DNA of 23,986 nucleotides, taken from the IMG/VR virus record IMGVR_UViG_2529292907_000023, positions 1 to 23,986 of that record. One strand, given 5' to 3'. How positions within the stretch are numbered: the stretch's first letter is position 1; every line of letters starts with the position of its first letter. Positions 1 to 14,748 of the stretch are shown here, piece after piece. The translations under genes were made by a program, and so were the position numbers. Origin of the DNA: a virus (Duplodnaviria > Heunggongvirae > Uroviricota > Caudoviricetes). Below the pieces are notes generated by a model that ran no database searches, had not been told where the DNA came from, and worked only from the letters and a program-made list of their open reading frames with translations.

Positions 1-1536
1 ATGGAAACCTGTTTTAAGATCCTTCAGCTCAAGTTCGACAAGAAGCTGACTAACCGTTGTATCGGACTGACGTTACACATCAGCGCCTCAACCGTTTTTG
101 AGGTTCTTGCCCGCTTCAAAGCCTCTTCTCTGTCATGGCCATTACCTGCTGATATATCCCATGACACGCTGGAGAAACTCATTTTTCCGCCCAAAGACAC
201 CTTTGCATCAGAGCTTGTAATGCCTGACATGTTGTACTTCGATACGGAAATGAGAAAACCAGGTGTGACGCGGCAACTGTTGTGGATGGAATACAAGGCA
301 CAGGCGGGTGACAAAGCGATGGGATACTCGCACTTCTGCCGTTGCTACCGGGAGTGGAAAAAAACGCGACGTCTCTCCATGCGCCAGGAGCATCGTGCCG
401 GCGAAAAGCTTTTTATCGACTTCTGTGGTCCTACGGTTCCTGTTATTAATCCGGACACCGGTGAGATACGCCGCGTGGCAATCTTCGTGGCCGTAATGGG
501 GGCGTCCAACTATACCTACGTTGAAGCGTGCGAAGGTCAGGACATGATGTCATGGTTAAATGCCCACAGCCGTTGCCTGACCTTCCTGGGCGGCGTACCG
601 AAGCTGCTCATCCCCGATAACCTCAGAAGCGCAGTGAAAAAGGCCGATCGCTATGAGCCTGTCATCAACGACAGTTATCAGGCACTGGCTGAGCACTATG
701 GCACGGTTATCATCCCGGCCCGACCACGCAAACCTAAAGATAAACCAAAAGCAGAAAACGGCGTCCTCATCGTCGAACGATGGCTTCTTGCCCGCATCCG
801 TAATGAAACCTTCCACACGCTCAGGGCGCTGAATGCGCGCCTTAGGGAGTTACTGACAGACATGAATAACCGGCCAATGAAGGGGTACGGCAATCAAACC
901 CGTGCAGAACGCTTCCGCATACTGGATGCGCCAGCACTCTCTCCGCTGCCTCTGGCACCTTATGAATACACGGAATACAAAGCTGTGAAGGTTGGCCCTG
1001 ACTACCACGTTGAATATGCCCGTCACTGGTACTCCGTTCCACACGAACTGGTCGGTCAGCGTCTGTCACTGAAGGCGGGGCAGTCGGTGGTACAGCTCTG
1101 GCACAAGGGGCAGTGTGTGGCGCAACATCCGCGCAGCACACATGAATATAAACACACAACCAATCCGCTTCACATGCCAGAGCGCCACCGGCAGCACGGG
1201 ACATGGACACCGGAACGCCTGATCGAGCAGGGAAAACGTACGGGCCCGTCCACAGGCCGGGTGGTTGAATCCATGCTGAAGGCAAAACCCCATCCGGAAC
1301 TGGCTTATCGTGCAGTTCTGGGGCTGCTGGCACTTCAGAAAAAATACGGCCCGGAACGGCTGGAAAAGGCCTGTTACGTTGCCCTGCACTATAACGCCCC
1401 TGACAGACGCTTTATCGACAATCTGCTGCGTCACCATCGGGAGAACCTGGAGCTTCCATTATCCCGCCAGGGCGAACAACATCCGGCATATGCTTCAGAG
1501 CATGAAAACCTGCGTGGTCCGGGCTACTACCACTGA
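1..1536 (+). CDS. istA: IS21-family transposase IstA (possibly N-terminally truncated by the window edge)
   Basis: 511-aa ORF starting at window position 1; central DDE-type region (DFCGP...D...E) and the C-terminal region typical of IstA; immediately followed by istB. Confidence 0.85.
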   Translation: METCFKILQLKFDKKLTNRCIGLTLHISASTVFEVLARFKASSLSWPLPADISHDTLEKLIFPPKDTFASELVMPDMLYFDTEMRKPGVTRQLLWMEYKAQAGDKAMGYSHFCRCYREWKKTRRLSMRQEHRAGEKLFIDFCGPTVPVINPDTGEIRRVAIFVAVMGASNYTYVEACEGQDMMSWLNAHSRCLTFLGGVPKLLIPDNLRSAVKKADRYEPVINDSYQALAEHYGTVIIPARPRKPKDKPKAENGVLIVERWLLARIRNETFHTLRALNARLRELLTDMNNRPMKGYGNQTRAERFRILDAPALSPLPLAPYEYTEYKAVKVGPDYHVEYARHWYSVPHELVGQRLSLKAGQSVVQLWHKGQCVAQHPRSTHEYKHTTNPLHMPERHRQHGTWTPERLIEQGKRTGPSTGRVVESMLKAKPHPELAYRAVLGLLALQKKYGPERLEKACYVALHYNAPDRRFIDNLLRHHRENLELPLSRQGEQHPAYASEHENLRGPGYYH

Positions 1537-1552
1537 CAGAAGGAACAACAGT

Positions 1553-2308
1553 ATGAGTGATAACCTGTTAAACAAACTGACCCAACTGAAACTCCCGGCG
1601 ATGGCCGGGAGCCTGATACGGCAGCGGGAAACGCCTCAGACCTACGACGAACTGTCGTTCGAGGAAAGGCTGACGCTGCTGGTTGATGACGAGCTTCTGA
1701 GCAGGGAAAACAGCCGTGTGGCACGGTTGAGAAAAAATGCCGGCCTGAAATACCAGGCAACACCGGAAGGGCTGCGCTATCCGGCCTCAAGAGGTCTGCG
1801 GGCTGAACAGATGAGAGAACTGCTGAACGGCCACTACATAACCCACAGGAAAAACCTGCTGATAACCGGTCCGACAGGATGTGGCAAGAGCTGGATAGCC
1901 AATGCACTGGGCGAACAGGCATGTCGACAGAAACACAGCGTCCGGTACTGTAGAACCGGGCGATTACTGGAACAACTGGCTCAGGGACGTGTTGATGGCA
2001 GCTGGCTGAAATATCTGAAACAGTTGCAAAAAATACAGGTTCTAATCCTGGACGATCTGGGGCTGGAACAGTTAAGTAACGCCCAGTGTAATGACCTTCT
2101 GGAGCTCATAGAGGATCGTTACGGACAAAGCAGCACGATAGTGGTAAGTCAGTTCCCGGTAGATAAATGGCATGGTCTGATGGAGAACCCAACAACAGCA
2201 GATGCCATCCTGGACAGACTGGTACATAACTCACACCGGGTGGTCCTTCAGGGAGAGTCACTGAGGAAAAATCCCCCGGTAGTGGAAAGCAGCGAAAAAA
2301 CGCGTTAA
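1553..2308 (+). CDS. istB: IS21-family ATP-binding helper IstB
   Basis: 251 aa from ATG at 1553 preceded by AAGGAAC RBS; Walker A GPTGCGKSW and Walker B LILDDLG; DnaC-like AAA+ fold typical of IstB. Confidence 0.9.
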   Translation: MSDNLLNKLTQLKLPAMAGSLIRQRETPQTYDELSFEERLTLLVDDELLSRENSRVARLRKNAGLKYQATPEGLRYPASRGLRAEQMRELLNGHYITHRKNLLITGPTGCGKSWIANALGEQACRQKHSVRYCRTGRLLEQLAQGRVDGSWLKYLKQLQKIQVLILDDLGLEQLSNAQCNDLLELIEDRYGQSSTIVVSQFPVDKWHGLMENPTTADAILDRLVHNSHRVVLQGESLRKNPPVVESSEKTR

Positions 2309-2329
2309 AAAGCGGTAGAAAAAGTTAAG

Positions 2330-2420
2330 TTCCCGGTTGATCGAATGGATGCGAATCGCTGATCGGACTTCGATGCCAATCCGTGATCGAATAGAGCGGA
2401 ATACGCAATCAGAGTGCCTC
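2330..2420 (+). repeat. Sub-terminal direct repeats of the IS21-family element (putative IstA binding sites)
   Basis: TGATCGAATGGA (2338-2349), TGATCGGACTTCGA (2360-2373) and TGATCGAATAGAG (2384-2396) within 60 bp downstream of istB. Confidence 0.5.
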
Positions 2421-2672
2421 TTACTCCTCCCACAAGAACACGATGCAGTAAAATCCATTCAGGCTGAGCCGTATGGACATCTCACACCTGTGACTCTCGG
2501 CATTATCGCCAGAGCATTAACACAGCCCATGCTTATGCGTATTAAGACCAATATAAATAACTGGTTGAATGAAGAATTAAGCTACCTTGATTGTGAGTGG
2601 GACAATCATTACGCAAAAACACAAAAAGAACGCATCTTCAGTCGATTATCCAGCAACAGATAACGAGCCACC

Positions 2673-3479
2673 TTATATACGCCCTTTCAGATAAGTCATC
2701 CCCGGCTGCATCCAGTCAACAGGTGCTTTCTTAAAGGGCGTATTATCAAAATCACGCAGAAGAGCCTCCAGCACAACTGCATCATTGTCAGCACCACTGG
2801 CCATCATTTCAATCTCAGCTGCTACCTGCAGATATCCCATGCAACGACCAATGCGCTTCATCAGCCCCTGCTTTTTATTGTTCTTCAGGTAATCAATGGC
2901 AAATTCAATGAGCGCCTCACTATGCTGGTGCGATGGCGGTGTTAATTTCCCATTTTCTGAGATGGTTATTTTCCCGCCATCTCCGTATACAACAAAGGAT
3001 GGCCGGTTACACTCCCATTCCTGATCTTTATCAGGTGCAGACGCAATAAAATAACGTTTATTTCCTTCCTCTCCGGCACTTTTAACCGTAATGGAGTACT
3101 CAGACTGCAGACAAGACGCCTCTTTTTCTGACCGCAGTGTTGACGGCGGCATCTTCAGAGAACCAGTAATTCTTCCCGGTAGCTTTCCTTTGTAGGTTAT
3201 CAACACATCCTGCGCCTCTAAAATTATGGGGCGCTTTTCCGGCAACGGTTCGTTCCCTTCACATAACCCGGCAGCAACATCCATGAAAAACTGCTTCGCC
3301 TGCTTTTTCGCCTCAGCTTCGTAAAACTCCAGCGTGGCACCTTCAGTACGGTCAAGACTAATCGCCACATTTGGCAACAACAGTGACGGATACCCACCAA
3401 TTTCCAGTACCACAGTAACAGTAATCTTATCCGGGTAATTATTTATCCCTTTAACAACCAGTTCGTATTTTTTCTTCAT
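2673..3479 (-). CDS. Hypothetical protein, 268 aa, in the endolysin position of the lysis cassette; function unknown
   Basis: ATG at 3479 lies 4 nt after the pinholin stop; its SD (GGGGAGAG) is formed by the last codons of the pinholin gene. No N-terminal hydrophobic SAR segment and no lysozyme or transglycosylase motif that I can recognise. About 45% GC. Confidence 0.7.
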   Translation of the reverse strand: MKKKYELVVKGINNYPDKITVTVVLEIGGYPSLLLPNVAISLDRTEGATLEFYEAEAKKQAKQFFMDVAAGLCEGNEPLPEKRPIILEAQDVLITYKGKLPGRITGSLKMPPSTLRSEKEASCLQSEYSITVKSAGEEGNKRYFIASAPDKDQEWECNRPSFVVYGDGGKITISENGKLTPPSHQHSEALIEFAIDYLKNNKKQGLMKRIGRCMGYLQVAAEIEMMASGADNDAVVLEALLRDFDNTPFKKAPVDWMQPGMTYLKGRI

Positions 3480-3483
3480 CGCT

Positions 3484-3699
3484 TTACTCTCCCCGCGCCG
3501 CCTTACGCCGGTCCTCTCTGATTTTGAAATACAGGTTAGTCAGATATGTCAGCAGCCCAAACAGCAGACTCCCCAGCACGCCTATTGCCGCCCACTGAGA
3601 CGGGGAAACCCTGTCCAGCAACTGCAGGAACCAGTAGCCCGTTCCCACCGCTGACGTGGTGTATGACACACCTGTTGTGATTTTTTCCATCTGGTACAT
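3484..3699 (-). CDS. S: Class II holin (pinholin), phage 21 S21-type, dual-start MYQM
   Basis: Protein [71 protein letters not shown] closely matches my recollection of S21 (…[46 protein letters not shown]); GGGAGA RBS upstream of ATG 3699; the longer ORF to 3777 would run through an upstream terminator hairpin. Confidence 0.85.
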
Positions 3700-3732
3700 A
3701 CCCCGTCTCCCGTTATCCGGAAGCTGACAACA

Positions 3733-3765
3733 ATAAAAAAAGCCACCAGTTAAGTACTGATGGCT
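3733..3765 (-). terminator. Intrinsic terminator-like hairpin between nanS-p and the pinholin gene
   Basis: Imperfect 10-bp stem (AGCCACCAGT / ACTGATGGCT), 5-nt loop, followed on the minus strand by TTTTTTTATT. Confidence 0.5.
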
Positions 3766-3849
3766 CTGATAACTCATGCAGGCATCTCAGACGACCCACT
3801 GACACTACCGGTGAGTTTAACGATACCTTCCATTTGACTGGCTCACTTT

Positions 3850-5703
3850 TTATGATGATGCCGGTGCATTTATCTCCAGCACCAGACTTTCTATCTCAAC
3901 GCCATACGCTGCATTTTTGGTAATATCCGTCAGCGTCAGTGCATTCAGTCCCACTGTCAGACTGTCTTTTATGACCTGGAATGCCGGGCCAGCCACTCCA
4001 TTCAGTTTCGGAGTAACCGTGGCACTGCCGGCGGTGAACACCAGCTCCAGCGTCTGCCAGTCGTTACTGTAATTCCCGAACTCGCCCAACTTTGTGTTTC
4101 CGGCTTTCTTGTGATGCATCAGATTCAGTTTGCCGTCTGTGGTCTGGGTGAAGAACGACATCAGGAACGGGTTACCAGTCCCGGTCATCGCCACGACGTC
4201 AGGTAACGCTACATCGGTATACAGATAAATTCCCAGACCGAACTGATTGTTGGTCAGTGCGCCTGACAGTCGAAACTTACAGCTCAGTCTGCCACCCCGT
4301 GTCAGCAGGGAGACTGCGTCATCCACCGGGCGCGTCAGGGACCAGGCTTTATTGCTCTGCTTGGTGATCTTAAATACACCATCTGACAACTGAATTCCGC
4401 CATTCTTAATGCTCCAGCCCTGCGCAGCAGCATCTCCGGCTGTCGGCAACAGGGAGATTGTGCGTACGGATGCATCTTCAGACGGCCCCGATGGCGTGTC
4501 GACGCCGGGCGAGGGTTTGATTTCCGGTGCCTTACCACTGATGAAGGCTGAGGTGCGCCCGGCTGCGTTCAGAATAGCGGTTGCCATACGATCCGGAATA
4601 ATGCTCCTGCGCGCCCATGAACTGAAATGTGTCGGGCGGTTTGATGATACCTGGTTTCCATTCGTTCTCGATGCCGCACCGTAATATCCTGATGCCGGAA
4701 TATCCGGATCTTCTGCCGGTGCGTTAGTGGCGGTATTGACGCCGTTACCGTCTGTCATGAAGGGCACAAAATAAACGCCCTCACTCTCCCTGTTTTTATA
4801 CCCTCCGTACACGGTGTCGTACTGGGTAGCGTATGTATTTTTCCAGTAATACGTCGTGTCACCACAAATCCACGGTACAACTGCAGCACTGCCGCCATGG
4901 CACTGCGCGTTAAATCCGGAAAGGTCAGTACGGAACTGCTTCAGCATGGCCGTGAACAGGTCCGGTTGCTGTGCGTAGGTGGCAGCGCTCATGTCAAATT
5001 CGCCCTGCATCCAGCACACCGCCAGCAACACATTTTTCGGGTTCTTCTGTAATGCAGCTTTAGTGCGCGCAATCAGGTCCTGATATAGCGGTTTACCCAC
5101 ACCCCAGCGTGCCGAATCCTGGCTGGCCCCCGCGTCCGCACTGAATGTCCCCTCCGCGCCCTGGGTGAATGCCGAACCACCACGACAGCATGGTACCAGC
5201 AGGATCCCCGCGTTATTCGGGATATACGGGAGCAGTTTTTTGGCAATATGTAAGCCCTGGCCGACACAGCCGTACTGCCCTTTGCTCAGGTCTGCCTTCG
5301 GATGATTCAGCGTACTCATATCCTGCACATCATGCAGACAGTGGTCAGCCGGGATGATGTCGTTATACGTACAACTCTCTCCACCCGGAGTTACCGTGCT
5401 GCGGCGCGCCAGCTGTTTAATGCGCGGATCCGGAGCATCGTAAGAATCCGGTAACGGAAGCCCTTCACCGTAGGCCATGCCGTTGGACTGTCCGGCAAGC
5501 ACAACCACGTAGAACCAGTCCGGCTCAGATGAAGGGCCGACCTGTGGATCTCCTTCAATAGCCACCGCCTGCATCAGTGTGTACGGCGTAATGGCAACCG
5601 GTCCGCCATATGGCTGCCAGCCCTCTTTCAGTTTGTGTGTCAGCTTTTCCGCAAGGTCTGACGGCGACGCCGCCCTGACAACATCATAGTGTTTAAATGC
5701 CAT
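3850..5703 (-). CDS. nanS-p: Prophage sialate 9-O-acetylesterase NanS-p (DUF1737 N-terminal domain plus SASA/SGNH esterase domain)
   Basis: 617 aa; N-terminus MAFKHYDVVRAASPSDLAEKLTHKLKEGWQPYG (DUF1737-like) followed by the GQSN esterase motif (VVLAGQSNGMAYG); strong RBS GGGAGGA; sits downstream of the tRNA cluster as in Stx and other lambdoid prophages of E. coli. Confidence 0.8.
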   Translation of the reverse strand: MAFKHYDVVRAASPSDLAEKLTHKLKEGWQPYGGPVAITPYTLMQAVAIEGDPQVGPSSEPDWFYVVVLAGQSNGMAYGEGLPLPDSYDAPDPRIKQLARRSTVTPGGESCTYNDIIPADHCLHDVQDMSTLNHPKADLSKGQYGCVGQGLHIAKKLLPYIPNNAGILLVPCCRGGSAFTQGAEGTFSADAGASQDSARWGVGKPLYQDLIARTKAALQKNPKNVLLAVCWMQGEFDMSAATYAQQPDLFTAMLKQFRTDLSGFNAQCHGGSAAVVPWICGDTTYYWKNTYATQYDTVYGGYKNRESEGVYFVPFMTDGNGVNTATNAPAEDPDIPASGYYGAASRTNGNQVSSNRPTHFSSWARRSIIPDRMATAILNAAGRTSAFISGKAPEIKPSPGVDTPSGPSEDASVRTISLLPTAGDAAAQGWSIKNGGIQLSDGVFKITKQSNKAWSLTRPVDDAVSLLTRGGRLSCKFRLSGALTNNQFGLGIYLYTDVALPDVVAMTGTGNPFLMSFFTQTTDGKLNLMHHKKAGNTKLGEFGNYSNDWQTLELVFTAGSATVTPKLNGVAGPAFQVIKDSLTVGLNALTLTDITKNAAYGVEIESLVLEINAPASS

Positions 5704-5897
5704 GAATCCTCCCGGCCGGGATAATATTGTGAGTAAAATGAGGAGCGGGCTGAAGTCCGGAAGTTACAGGACAATGGCAGAAGAGAGACAATAGCCCGCA
5801 ATACGAAAAAGGCCGCGCTATTGCGCAGAGTGATTACTGTCGGATATTATTCGCCAGCTGAAATATTACTTCACGTTTTGTTGTTTATTCCTTGCCG

Positions 5898-5925
5898 CCC
5901 GCGTCTCCCTGCGCGGGATTTTTTT
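5898..5925 (+). terminator. Plus-strand intrinsic terminator (6-bp GC stem, T7 tail) in the tRNA/nanS-p intergenic region
   Basis: CCCGCG-tctccctg-CGCGGG followed by ATTTTTTT on the plus strand. Confidence 0.5.
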
Positions 5926-5931
5926 GTCCAT

Positions 5932-5955
5932 AAGAAAGCCCCTCCGGAGAGGGGC
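5932..5955 (-). terminator. Minus-strand intrinsic terminator-like hairpin (7-bp stem, tetraloop)
   Basis: GCCCCTC-cgga-GAGGGGC; on the minus strand it is followed by TTTCTTAT. Abuts the plus-strand terminator, forming a convergent pair. Confidence 0.45.
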
Positions 5956-6151
5956 TGGAGAGTGGCGCTATGTGCCATTGCATGGTGCCGGGTGCCTCCC
6001 GGTGAATTCAGTACCAGCACCTGAATCCGCGATTATCCCATATACCTACTCGCTGATTGCCCCTCCGCACAGGGGGATTCACCATGCCAGTTTCTTTTAA
6101 CAAACTCCCCGCAAAACAGACAACTGTCAACCGTCTGAATTGTGAGACATT

Positions 6152-6178
6152 TAAAAAAAGGCCCGCAAAAGCGAGCCA
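6152..6178 (-). terminator. Intrinsic terminator immediately downstream of the tRNA cluster
   Basis: On the minus strand GGCTCG-cttttg-CGGGCC followed by TTTTTTTAA, directly 3' of tRNA-Arg(UCU). Confidence 0.6.
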
Positions 6179-6191
6179 GGGAAAATAAGTG

Positions 6192-6268
6192 TGGCGCGTT
6201 GTACTGGATTCGAACCAGTGACCGATTGCTTAGAAGGCAATTGCTCTGTCCGGCTGAGCTAACAACGC
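6192..6268 (-). tRNA. argO: tRNA-Arg (anticodon UCU)
   Basis: Reverse complement GCGTTGTTAGCTCAGCCGGACAGAGCAATTGCCTTCTAAGCAATCGGTCACTGGTTCGAATCCAGTACAACGCGCCA folds as a cloverleaf (7-bp acceptor, GTTCGAATC T-loop, CCA end); anticodon loop CTTCTAA. Symbol assigned only by positional analogy to phage 933W. Confidence 0.9.
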
Positions 6269-6281
6269 AGGGTACAGATAA

Positions 6282-6358
6282 TGGACCGCCATCGAGGACT
6301 CGAACCCCGCGCAACCAGCTTCGAAGGCTGGCGCTCTATCCTGATGAGCTAATGGCGG
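6282..6358 (-). tRNA. argN: tRNA-Arg (anticodon UCG)
   Basis: Reverse complement CCGCCATTAGCTCATCAGGATAGAGCGCCAGCCTTCGAAGCTGGTTGCGCGGGGTTCGAGTCCTCGATGGCGGTCCA; anticodon stem CCAGC/GCTGG with loop CTTCGAA (U33, anticodon UCG, A37). Symbol by positional analogy only. Confidence 0.85.
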
Positions 6359-6365
6359 TATGTGA

Positions 6366-6441
6366 TGGTGGCCCTTGCTGGATTTGAACCAGCGACCTGG
6401 CGATTATGAGTCGCTCGCTCTCACCACTGAGCTAAAGGGCC
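6366..6441 (-). tRNA. ileZ: tRNA-Ile2-like (anticodon CAU, lysidine type; Met cannot be excluded from sequence alone)
   Basis: Reverse complement GGCCCTTTAGCTCAGTGGTGAGAGCGAGCGACTCATAATCGCCAGGTCGCTGGTTCAAATCCAGCAAGGGCCACCA is very similar to E. coli ileX (tRNA-Ile k2CAU) as I recall it; anticodon loop CTCATAA. Confidence 0.9.
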
Positions 6442-6490
6442 GCGCGCAGAATAATAACGTTACGGAATTAATACTGCAATCTCATCCGTT

Positions 6491-7540
6491 TCAAACGATT
6501 AAATCCTGAACTTCCCTGACTGTCTGCTCAAAACGTCCGGTCTCCAGCTCAACACCAATCGCACGACGCCCCAGTGCCATCGCCGCTTTTACCGTTGAAC
6601 CCGACCCCATGAAAAAATCCGCAACCAGATCACCAGGACGACTACTTGCGCTGATTATCTGCTGCAGCATTTCTGCCGGTTTTTCGCACGGATGTTTCCC
6701 TGGATAGTACTGCACCGGTTTATACGTCCACACATCGGTGTACGGCACCTGCACCGTCACACCGAAATACCGCCGCAAATTTTTATATTCACTCAGCAGT
6801 TCCATATACTGCCGGTTCAGCTCACTGTATGTGCTGACCAGCTGGTGGTGTGGCTTTTCCAGTTCCCCGCGCTGATGTTTCTCTTCTGCCACCCGGGCAA
6901 ACAGCGACTGTAATTTCAGATAATCGCTTTCGTTCGGTAGCTGCCACTGACTGGCACTGAACCAGTGCGGCACCATGTTTTTCTTTCCTGTGGCATCTGC
7001 AATCTGTTTTGCCGTTATCCCCAGGGCAGCGCGCGCATCACGAAAGTAAGCAATCAGCGGGGCCATCACATGCTGTTTCAGTGCCCTGCCCTTCGCCTCA
7101 TACCCGGCATCTTTCGGACGATACGGCCCCTGATAATGTTCCGCGAACAGAATGCGCTCTGTGGCGGGGAAATACGCCCGCAGGCTTTCCTTGTTGCATC
7201 CGTTCCAGCGTCCGGACGGCTTCGCCCAGATAATATGGTTCAGCACACTGAAGCGTTCACGCATCATGATTTCGATATCAGATGCCAGGCGATGACCACA
7301 GAACAGGTAAAGACTTCCGGCAGGTTTCAGCACCCGCCAGAACTGCGCCAGACACTGGTCCAGCCACTTCAGGTAATCATCGTCGCCCTTCCACTGGTTA
7401 TCCCAGCCCTCAGGCTTCACTTTAAAGTACGGCGGGTCCGTGACTATCAGGTCAACAGAATTTTCGGGTAACGACCGGATAAATTCCAGGCAGTCGGCGT
7501 TGATTAACTCACAACTGGATATTTTTACAGTATTAGCCAT
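6491..7540 (-). CDS. Orphan DNA methyltransferase (beta-class N6-adenine or N4-cytosine MTase)
   Basis: 349 aa; motif IV DPPY (LIVTDPPYF) near the N-terminus and AdoMet-binding motif I FFMGSGST near the C-terminus (beta-class order); no adjacent restriction endonuclease candidate. Confidence 0.85.
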   Translation of the reverse strand: MANTVKISSCELINADCLEFIRSLPENSVDLIVTDPPYFKVKPEGWDNQWKGDDDYLKWLDQCLAQFWRVLKPAGSLYLFCGHRLASDIEIMMRERFSVLNHIIWAKPSGRWNGCNKESLRAYFPATERILFAEHYQGPYRPKDAGYEAKGRALKQHVMAPLIAYFRDARAALGITAKQIADATGKKNMVPHWFSASQWQLPNESDYLKLQSLFARVAEEKHQRGELEKPHHQLVSTYSELNRQYMELLSEYKNLRRYFGVTVQVPYTDVWTYKPVQYYPGKHPCEKPAEMLQQIISASSRPGDLVADFFMGSGSTVKAAMALGRRAIGVELETGRFEQTVREVQDLIV

Positions 7541-7888: not shown

Positions 7889-8010
7889 GTCTTTTTCCCT
7901 TTTTCGGTTAACGTGACACACCAATAACTCTTGTCGAAAAAGCCAGCAAGCTGAAAGACAGGTATTCACCGCCACCAGCACGTTTACTGTACTGGACCGA
8001 TTTCAGCCAT

Positions 8011-8035
8011 AAAAAAACCCGCTCGCGGCGGGTTT
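8011..8035 (-). terminator. tR'-like intrinsic terminator downstream of Q (end of the short late-promoter transcript)
   Basis: On the minus strand AAACCCGC-cgcga-GCGGGTTT followed by TTTTTTT; about 70-95 nt downstream of the Q stop, matching the lambdoid Q / pR' / tR' arrangement. Confidence 0.75.
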
Positions 8036-8103
8036 AAGCTGTGTGGCGAAGTAACCACTCTTAACATACTGACATACTTTTTGCGGACCGCACTAATCAT
8101 TTT
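8036..8103 (-). promoter_or_regulatory. Presumed late promoter pR' with Q-utilisation (qut) region
   Basis: Position only: the segment between the Q stop codon and the tR'-like terminator. I could not assign convincing -35/-10 hexamers by eye. Confidence 0.4.
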
Positions 8104-8484
8104 TTACTTTTTTAGCAGCCAGTCGTCCATCTCCAGTCTTACCCCCAGCACAGACAAACATCCGTCAATAAACCCTTCGGCTATCTGCATCTCAATTCGT
8201 ATTGCTTTTTCGCTTTTCTTTCTCGTCCTGGCTATCTGTCTTTTTGATATTCGCAACAAATAATGAGCAATGAGAAGCGAATACTCCTCAGGTTTTTTCT
8301 GCTTCAGACGAGCAAGACAGTTTTCAATGATAAGTCCGTCATCATCGCAGCAGGCCGGACGTGGTTTAGTGGCAGATGGTAAAAGTCCTTTGAATCCGGC
8401 AGCGATCGGAGAATAGTCCACCCCGGTGTTACCACTTGCAGCCCATGCCCCCCAGCGTTCAAGAACCATCTGAATATCACGCAT
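8104..8484 (-). CDS. Q: Late-gene antitermination protein Q (phage 21/82-type)
   Basis: ATG at 8484 with GGAGA RBS; N-terminus MRDIQMVLERWGAWAA and a CCDDD motif match my recollection of phage 82/21-type Q proteins; followed by a pR'/tR'-like region. The track ORF begins at a TTG at 8499. Confidence 0.8.
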   Translation of the reverse strand: MRDIQMVLERWGAWAASGNTGVDYSPIAAGFKGLLPSATKPRPACCDDDGLIIENCLARLKQKKPEEYSLLIAHYLLRISKRQIARTRKKSEKAIRIEMQIAEGFIDGCLSVLGVRLEMDDWLLKK

Positions 8485-14364: not shown

Positions 14365-14748
14365 GATGGCAGCCTCCGTTGACAGTGAAAAACTTCCACC
14401 ACCGGAAACGCCAATTTCACTGGTGGTGAACTGGACGGGGTTGGCGTAACCGGCGTCAACGGAGACCGGCGCACCTTTCGGTGCCCCCGCCCAGCCCACC
14501 ATAATCTGGATGTGAGCAAATGCGGACGATAAAAAAGACGCTGACGCGTCATACATCGCCGTTGACAATTTCAGGACGCCAATCCCGGCACCCGCTTTAT
14601 AAGGTGCAGAGACAGTGTAACGTCCCGAAATTGCAGAATCAATATTTGGTCTTGAAATGATCATATAGCTGCTGATATCTTTAGAACTGTTCTTGGATGT
14701 TTCAGAGCCGTTTTATGCGAAACAGCTCCCCGTTATTGATGTTGAGTG

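Follow-up and report, generated by a model that had tools for sequence, protein, structure and literature searches.

A long-form YdfR/DUF1327 gene coupled to a pinholin in a lysis cassette interrupted by an IS21-family element

Introduction

A close described relative of the gene reported here is ydfR (b1555, P76160) of the Qin prophage of Escherichia coli K-12, in which the lysis region is arranged as essQ, a 4-nt gap, ydfR, rrrQ and rzpQ. YdfR, a protein of 103 amino acids (aa), is thus encoded 4 nt past the S21-type holin gene essQ and before the lysozyme gene rrrQ and the Rz gene. The identical position past a holin gene was found for a 268-aa open reading frame (ORF) at 2673..3479 on the minus strand of a tailed-phage sequence of 23,986 nt (Caudoviricetes; IMG/VR record IMGVR_UViG_2529292907_000023, positions 1 to 23,986). 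This whole stretch of DNA is referred to below as the window. The N-terminal domain of the window protein is homologous to that of YdfR. However, YdfR consists of this domain and a short helix, whereas the window protein continues into a linker and a 116-aa C-terminal domain.

A second close system is the Shiga toxin (Stx) 2-converting phage 86 (NC_008464), in which the genes are ordered as stx2AB, nanS-p, S holin, gp05, gp06 (opposite strand), R lysozyme, ant, Rz/Rz1, bor and terminase. Its gp05, as well as an ORF of a prophage in E. coli O104:H4 2011C-3493, is essentially the window gene with the same flanking holin and nanS-p. In both of these prophages the downstream region is undamaged and includes gp06, lysozyme and Rz, whereas the window copy is cut by an insertion sequence (IS) of the IS21 family and its gp06 is truncated.

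A first-pass annotation, made from the letters of the window without database searches, had described the 268-aa ORF as an unknown gene sitting where the endolysin should be and had proposed either a novel lysis-associated protein or accessory cargo such as a defence function. A search of the literature found nothing on the function of DUF1327, the family to which the gene was assigned here, and for YdfR a single report (PMC13232886).

Results

Identity of the 268-aa gene

The 268-aa gene is almost certainly a long-form YdfR/DUF1327 accessory gene of lambdoid lysis cassettes, a late-operon gene coupled to the pinholin whose soluble two-domain product does not substitute for an endolysin. The ORF starts with ATG, has its stop codon at 2673-2675 and encodes a protein that begins with MKKKYELVVKGINNYPDK. 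DUF1327 (PF07041), named 'YdfR family' by NCBI, was the sole Pfam match of the protein with 147.2 bits against a gathering cutoff of 25 bits and an expectation value (E) of 1.7e-43, residues 1-100 being aligned to positions 1-88 of the 93 positions of the profile. In PHROGs the protein was placed in phrog_1085 (E 2.5e-159; function class unknown), and a scan against NCBIfam returned nothing. No muralytic family was matched in Pfam or NCBIfam, in agreement with the absence of lysozyme and transglycosylase signatures that had been noted at first pass.

Comparison with phage 86 showed that window 2407-4000 was 99.6% identical at the DNA level, and gp05 (YP_794052.1), labelled 'YdfR family protein' and annotated with the full 268 aa in RefSeq, matched the window protein with 99.3% protein identity. 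Residues 1-78 of K-12 YdfR aligned to the N terminus of the window protein with 44% identity (E 1e-20). The gene is therefore already known, as a member of a catalogued family with copies in RefSeq. Of the earlier description as unknown and novel, the part that stands is that no function is established; the gene itself belongs to DUF1327/YdfR. Homology to a routine lysis-accessory family, which the first-pass annotation had named as grounds for giving up its reading, was essentially what the profile search found in DUF1327, although that family itself is without known function.

At least 80% of window 2350-3500 was present in 55 complete E. coli genomes, O104:H4 outbreak strains among them. 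The prophage of O104:H4 2011C-3493 is stx-less and has the same order of methylase, tRNAs, nanS-p and holin as the window, with an intact 268-aa ORF and a lysozyme beyond gp06. The window is a stx-less member of the Stx-phage-like group, similar to this O104:H4 prophage. When 1.84 billion cluster representatives were scanned exhaustively with HMMER, only 71 clusters were returned at E ≤0.001, and a profile search added prophage proteins of Salmonella enterica, annotated 'hypothetical', with approximately 30% identity to the 268-aa protein. By these searches the YdfR-long family is narrow. Among sequenced Stx1a and Stx2c phages and in H-19B, N-only forms of 103-112 aa were the most frequent. 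The ratio of nonsynonymous to synonymous substitution rates (dN/dS) of 0.25-0.40 in the folded domains, together with homologues down to approximately 30% identity in Salmonella, marks the 268-aa ORF as a real gene.

Two existing annotations of near-identical copies differed from this assignment. Where the 268-aa ORF is intact, the Prokaryotic Genome Annotation Pipeline (PGAP) called a partial pseudogene limited to the N-terminal 112 codons, with the label 'YdfR family protein, missing C-terminus' (O104:H4 2011C-3493, locus L133 5267-6073; locus L004 5738-6073). The call of a pseudogene on an intact ORF indicates that the C-terminal domain is evidently outside the curated models. The RefSeq record of phage 86 describes gp05 (locus L001 8267-9073) as homologous to COG0188 (Type IIA topoisomerase A subunit). 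This note appears spurious, with no topoisomerase or gyrase A domain matched in Pfam or NCBIfam.

Coupling to the pinholin and properties of the protein

The upstream gene at 3484..3699 (minus strand) encodes an S21-type class II holin (pinholin) of 71 aa that matched Pfam PF04971, Phage_holin_2_1 'Bacteriophage P21 holin S', with an E of 9e-33. The residues MYQM occupy the S21 dual-start position, and RefSeq labels the same gene 'class II holin family protein'. The assignment as a pinholin made at first pass was thus borne out, as was the reported 4-nt spacing. The pinholin stop codon TAA (3486-3484) is followed by the four bases AGCG and then by the ATG of the 268-aa gene at 3479-3477. A Shine-Dalgarno sequence, GGGGAGAG, was read at 3487..3494 (minus strand) within the final holin codons GGA GAG TAA, with its GGAG core at 3492-3489, 9 nt 5' of the ATG. 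A consensus scan showed that promoter-like sites for the 268-aa gene or gp06 were not above those of shuffled sequence (3 seen against 3.0 expected). The 4-nt gap, the Shine-Dalgarno sequence in the holin codons and the chance level of promoter-like sites together point to expression of the 268-aa gene from the late operon.

The 268-aa protein has an isoelectric point of 6.2. Its best 19-residue Kyte-Doolittle mean was 1.3, which corresponds to no transmembrane or signal-like segment and agrees with the earlier reading that a hydrophobic N-terminal segment is absent. The N terminus is polar (MKKKYELVVKG), and neither a signal-anchor-release (SAR) sequence nor a signal sequence was recognised in it. 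No transmembrane helix of the kind expected for a holin or antiholin was found in the protein, and its AlphaFold2 (AF2) model consisted of soluble alpha/beta domains.

Interruption of the lysis cassette by the IS21-family element

An ISSso4-like element of the IS21 family was identified at 1..2409 (plus strand), with istA at 1-1536, istB at about 1553-2308 and the right end at approximately 2407-2412. Window position 1 is the ATG of istA, and the left end of the element lies outside the window. The element was 99.4-100% identical to copies annotated as istA/istB across E. coli genomes, and these matches ended at 2409-2424. It lies approximately 264 bp past the stop codon of the 268-aa gene; the first-pass annotation had recognised the element and placed it slightly too close, at 240 bp. 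In the alignment with phage 86, homology to intact phages ended at approximately 2407, inside the convergent gp06 gene. A 34-mer across the junction had no exact match in collections of genomes, metagenomes and viral contigs, and the junction was found in none of the complete E. coli genomes searched, in which every match ended at window 2407.

No lysozyme, Rz or Rz1 gene was found downstream of the 268-aa gene in the window, as had been stated before. The arrangement in relatives was examined in 131 related loci, which were gathered from phage records, RefSeq genomes, IMG/VR and public assemblies. In these, tblastn was used to place homologues of the two domains (N and C), of the lysozyme and gp06 and of the two types of holin. 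A lysozyme on the same strand was located 40-910 bp downstream in 126 of 132 sequences with the C-domain gene, and five of the six sequences without it reached the contig end within 923 bp. Only in the window was a lysozyme missing although the downstream stretch was long enough (2676 bp) to show one; this stretch is the IS21 element. Near-identical loci are frequent in this collection, and the set seeded with gp06 shares members with the first one, so that the counts are not independent events, but the pattern is exceptionless. The placement known from ydfR was thus seen on its holin side in the window and on its lysozyme side in 126 of the 132 relatives.

In intact relatives the lysozyme has a SAR-like N terminus and is followed downstream by Rz/Rz1. 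The endolysin is missing in the window because the IS21 insertion cut the cassette. The holin was separated from R and Rz by IS21 landing in the convergent gene, and the lysis cassette of the prophage is broken or rearranged. The earlier placing of the 268-aa gene where the endolysin should be was not supported; relatives keep the lysozyme further downstream. The insertion predicts that the prophage represented by the window is lysis-defective, and the apparent oddity of a pinholin without an endolysin is damage from the IS in a gene neighbourhood that is intact in relatives. The gene itself occurs in many E. coli prophages.

Lysis-cassette context in E. coli and Salmonella

The gene is always 3' of an S21-type holin in the E. 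coli loci. In the Salmonella loci it is located just 5' of a holin of the PF16080 family, which is followed by a closely related lysozyme and Rz. In both genera the lysozyme has at its start a hydrophobic stretch rich in Gly and Ala, as is typical of SAR endolysins. In relatives the downstream R begins with MNTKIKYGLSAAVLALIAIGAPAP, unlike the polar N terminus of the 268-aa protein. Overall, the order in intact relatives was holin, YdfR-long, an optional convergent gene of approximately 100 aa, SAR-like lysozyme and Rz/Rz1, and the tie of the gene to lysis cassettes is conserved in two genera.

The Salmonella gene lies directly after a tRNA and STnc100 element, and STnc100 precedes nanS-p in the window. 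This shared position of STnc100 indicates that the Salmonella gene occupies the classical late-operon cargo slot.

Domain architecture and selection

The protein was divided into three parts. The N-terminal domain (residues 1-75; 3255..3479, minus strand) is the DUF1327 core of three beta strands and one long helix, as delimited by AF2 and dN/dS. A variable mosaic linker (residues 76-152; 3024..3254, minus strand) follows, with a predicted local distance difference test (pLDDT) score below 50 over residues 72-152. The conserved C-terminal domain (residues 153-268; 2676..3023, minus strand) is built of three short strands and four helices and is outside any Pfam family. The mean pLDDT of the AF2 model was 46 with a 15-sequence alignment and 62.8 with a 51-sequence alignment. 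With the latter, the N domain showed strands at residues 5-14, 18-27 and 38-43 and a helix at 50-73, with pLDDT block means of 67-87 over residues 1-70, and the C domain showed strands within 162-180 and four helices with block means of 64-89.

Residues H186, L198, G211, G215, L217, Q218, P248 and K250 were invariant in the 51-sequence alignment (A3), and the C domain carried the motif KR[IL]GRCMG[YL]LQVAAEIE ... DNPPFK ... W..PG..YLK.R. A Pfam scan of all 51 members found DUF1327 only and left the C domain uncovered. The dN/dS was 0.25-0.29 in the N domain, 0.29-0.40 in the C domain and 0.5-0.96 in the linker. Both the N and C domains are under purifying selection.

The structure prediction suggested at first pass thus produced two folded units, and fold searches with the model of the 268-aa protein gave no significant match and none to lysozymes. 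Profile searches against the PDB with full-length and C-domain alignments reached a best E of 0.019-0.12, which is noise. Since both domains have a beta-beta-beta-alpha order, an internal duplication was considered, and it was rejected at the sequence level (hhalign probability 0.1%).

Alleles of 296-333 aa carry a coiled-coil insert of approximately 30-70 aa in the linker, which the 268-aa allele does not have. From the alignments (A1 and A2), the 268-aa allele appears to have arisen by deletion between two 'SEK' repeats. N-domain alleles were swapped as cassettes, with a synonymous rate (dS) of 1.5 in the N domain against approximately 0 elsewhere in the gene in one relative. Comparison of window 3255-3479 with loci L039 and L048 gave a dS of approximately 1.5 in the N domain, 0-0.04 in the linker and 0-0.14 in the C domain, and this jump in dS indicates a recombination breakpoint at the boundary of the N domain.

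The Salmonella members keep the N and C architecture, and their N domain was still matched by phrog_2735, a PHROG also matched by the N domain of the window protein. Some E. coli prophages have a split form in reversed order, namely holin, a 213-aa C-domain gene, a 75-aa DUF1327 gene and lysozyme, which indicates that the N and C parts remain linked even when they are not fused. In the loci of this type (L008-L010, approximately 4782-6847; one Stx prophage included) the 213-aa gene comprises a coiled coil and the C domain, and an unrelated 95-aa ORF on the opposite strand is located before the lysozyme. The architecture shared with Salmonella suggests that the two-domain form may be the older, ancestral one and that the short forms would be truncations.

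The convergent gp06-like gene

A remnant of a convergent gene of approximately 104 aa, corresponding to phage 86 gp06 and to phrog_1853, was identified at 2407..2663 (plus strand), with positions 70-158 of the 159 of phrog_1853 matched. Its first approximately 20 codons and its upstream region are replaced by IS21 sequence. The remnant and the 268-aa gene are tail-to-tail, with stop codons 9 bp apart. The intact gene was located at 7943-8257 in the phage 86 locus (L001) and at 4809-5126 (minus strand) in a Salmonella locus (L011). The E. coli and Salmonella versions were 44% identical (E 4e-28), and PHROGs classes phrog_1853 as function unknown. A gp06 partner was present in about one third to one half of the loci with the C-domain gene. 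In gp06-seeded searches the C-domain gene was tail-to-tail with gp06 in all 31 IMG/VR loci and all four phage records, and gp06 was never found alone.

Other features of the window

A terminator-like hairpin with a T-run and a stem of 12 pairs was found at 3739..3767 (minus strand), between nanS-p and the holin gene, as a consensus match only. It was found by a consensus scan of the phage 86 locus (L001 9361-9333) and mapped to the window with an offset of 5594. The hairpin falls inside a long upstream extension (3700-3777) of the holin ORF, and it might serve, for example, to attenuate read-through into the lysis genes. The upstream neighbour in the late operon, at 3850..5703 (minus strand), is a NanS-p-type sialate O-acetylesterase gene with the Pfam matches DUF1737, SASA and DUF6645, and its counterpart in relatives is annotated as a SASA family esterase.

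A tRNA cluster was located at 6192-6441, with Met-CAT (annotated as Ile in relatives), Arg-TCG and Arg-TCT. The stx genes were absent, and approximately 490 bp separate the tRNA cluster from nanS-p (window 5703-6441). The Rfam STnc100 small RNA was matched in this gap at 5926-6116 with 139 bits. In the early/immunity region, at 14419-14607 (minus strand), Rfam matches to the C4 antisense RNA (81 bits) and the adjoining isrK Hfq-binding RNA (62 bits) were found, and the same pair was also present in a Salmonella locus with the YdfR-like gene (L011 404-594).

Discussion

Proposed role of the window protein

The lead on function comes from K-12 YdfR. A two-hybrid screen with ribonuclease (RNase) G, the paralogue of RNase E, as bait recovered YdfR residues 1-72, and the signals of this fragment were higher with RNase E constructs (PMC13232886, 2026). 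Full-length YdfR and Rne1-597 also interacted in the two-hybrid assay, and Rne1-598 co-eluted with Strep-YdfR from lysate, with DNase-resistant nucleic acid co-purifying (PMC13232886). The same role is considered for the window protein because its N domain is 44% identical to the YdfR region used in that report. The mechanism preferred here, although less likely than not, is that the window gene encodes a late cytoplasmic protein that uses its DUF1327 domain to dock on RNase E and/or RNA.

In such a scheme the protein would be made late with the lysis proteins. Its target in the cytoplasm would be the host RNA-decay machinery, and the stability or processing of late transcripts might, for instance, be altered. 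The DUF1327 N domain would serve as a module for the catalytic half of RNase E and/or for RNA, and the C-terminal domain may supply a second partner or an oligomerisation surface. The protein would be dispensable for lysis itself. Taken together, a YdfR-long accessory gene with a role on RNase E or RNA is our best combined explanation and is put forward tentatively. A wider version, in which YdfR-long and, where present, its convergent partner of approximately 100 aa would form a functional module of pinholin/SAR-endolysin cassettes, is speculative and on the whole unlikely. There DUF1327 would act on RNase E or RNA, and the C domain would couple RNA decay to late-gene expression or lysis timing, Stx and nanS-p expression included.

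Several points weigh against a role on RNase E. The data come from a 103-aa homologue without the C-terminal domain, and the proposal leaves that domain unaccounted for. They consist of two-hybrid signals and co-elution from lysate, without a nuclease control or an in vitro pull-down, so that bridging by RNA is possible (PMC13232886). Overproduction of YdfR changed few transcripts and left growth unaffected (PMC13232886). Finally, the strict tie to SAR-type lysozyme cassettes in two genera fits a lysis-specific role at least as naturally.

Alternative explanations

The strongest alternative is that the protein is a cytoplasmic factor for lysis timing or control that tunes pinholin triggering, whether through the cytoplasmic holin tail, through the not yet exported endolysin or through membrane potential. 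This is somewhat doubtful, but given the invariant tie to SAR-type cassettes it is about as plausible as docking on RNase E. The neighbourhood comparison called for at first pass showed the gene embedded in or abutting a lysis cassette at every locus examined. Its neighbour is the S21 holin in E. coli or the PF16080 holin in Salmonella, yet the same lysozyme type lies downstream, and the 268-aa gene is translationally coupled to the holin. On the other side, the 268-aa protein has no membrane segment, and to our knowledge S and R are directly adjacent in phage 21 and 933W, with no gene in the place of ydfR, which implies that lysis can do without such a gene. The linkage may also merely mark a hot-spot for recombination or morons; the Salmonella gene is in the slot held by stx and nanS-p in E. 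coli phages. A K-12 ydfR mutant was recovered in an envelope-integrity screen, as cited in PMC13232886, but the envelope phenotype of the ydfR deletion could be polar on rrrQ.

It is unlikely that YdfR-long and gp06 are accessory cargo, a two-gene module for superinfection exclusion, abortive infection or toxin-antidote function unrelated to lysis. The exclusive tail-to-tail association of gp06 with the C-domain gene (31/31 IMG/VR loci and 4/4 phage records) fits such a module, the pair is kept between E. coli and Salmonella despite its differing position relative to the holin, and the alleles of the linker and the N domain are highly mosaic and evolve fast, a behaviour often seen in conflict genes. 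However, gp06 is lacking next to roughly half or more of the C-domain genes, and the promoter signal for either gene was not above chance. Coupling to a late lysis gene implies that no expression should be expected in the lysogen, the state in which defence genes usually operate. A scan of the 268-aa protein and the IS21-truncated gp06 remnant against PADLOC-DB v2 gave no match at E up to 0.1. With neither a PADLOC match nor an expression pattern in its favour, the earlier suggestion of a defence or abortive-infection function found no support. In addition, the N-only homologue YdfR was non-toxic when overproduced (PMC13232886).

More improbable still is a functionless filler ORF, drifting and recombinogenic, that is kept between two essential lysis genes. 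The range of lengths (162-333 aa), the existence of N-only (103-112 aa), C-only and split forms, the PGAP annotation of some copies as pseudogenes and a whole-gene dN/dS of 0.43-0.68 would all fit drift. Purifying selection on both folded domains (dN/dS 0.25-0.40) argues otherwise, as do the persistence of the architecture and the invariant residues down to approximately 30% identity in Salmonella and the intact ORF at ≥99% identity in 55 complete E. coli genomes.

That the protein replaces R as a novel muralytic enzyme or endolysin has in its favour the position after the pinholin and the lack of a recognisable downstream lysozyme in the window and nothing else, and this reading is effectively refuted: the protein has no signal, SAR or transmembrane segment and hence no route to the periplasm through a pinholin, Pfam and NCBIfam gave no muralytic family and PHROGs only matches of unknown function, no fold match to lysozymes was found, and a separate lysozyme is present downstream in every relative with enough flanking DNA.

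Comparison with known systems

DUF1327/YdfR is among the few conserved genes without an assigned role in the lysis regions of lambdoid and Stx-type prophages, K-12 and O104:H4 included. Added here are the apparently ancestral two-domain form, a C domain absent from Pfam, selection on both domains, the company of SAR-type cassettes in E. coli and Salmonella, and a frequent convergent partner gene. Together with the 2026 report on RNase E (PMC13232886), these additions provide a concrete and cheaply testable hypothesis. If the wider version described above is true, YdfR-long would be a new class of phage modulator of RNase E or a fourth kind of lysis-cassette component.

On the side of lysis, extra genes in the cassette have precedents. 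P1 LydB, P2 LysA/LysB/LysC and Mu releasin are lysis-cassette extras beyond holin, endolysin and spanin, and several of them are membrane proteins. The window gene is likewise an extra cassette gene; no homology to these proteins was found, and the 268-aa protein is soluble. We know of no lysis phenotype for any DUF1327 gene.

On the side of RNA decay, host RNase E is modulated by phage proteins such as the T7 gp0.7 kinase, phiKZ Dip and T4 Srd. Should the lead from K-12 YdfR hold, the 268-aa protein would join these phage proteins that target RNase E during infection; no relationship of sequence or fold to them was seen. The site of contact would differ from that of Dip, which binds the C-terminal scaffold of RNase E. 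Unlike Dip, K-12 YdfR maps to the N-terminal catalytic half of RNase E (PMC13232886).

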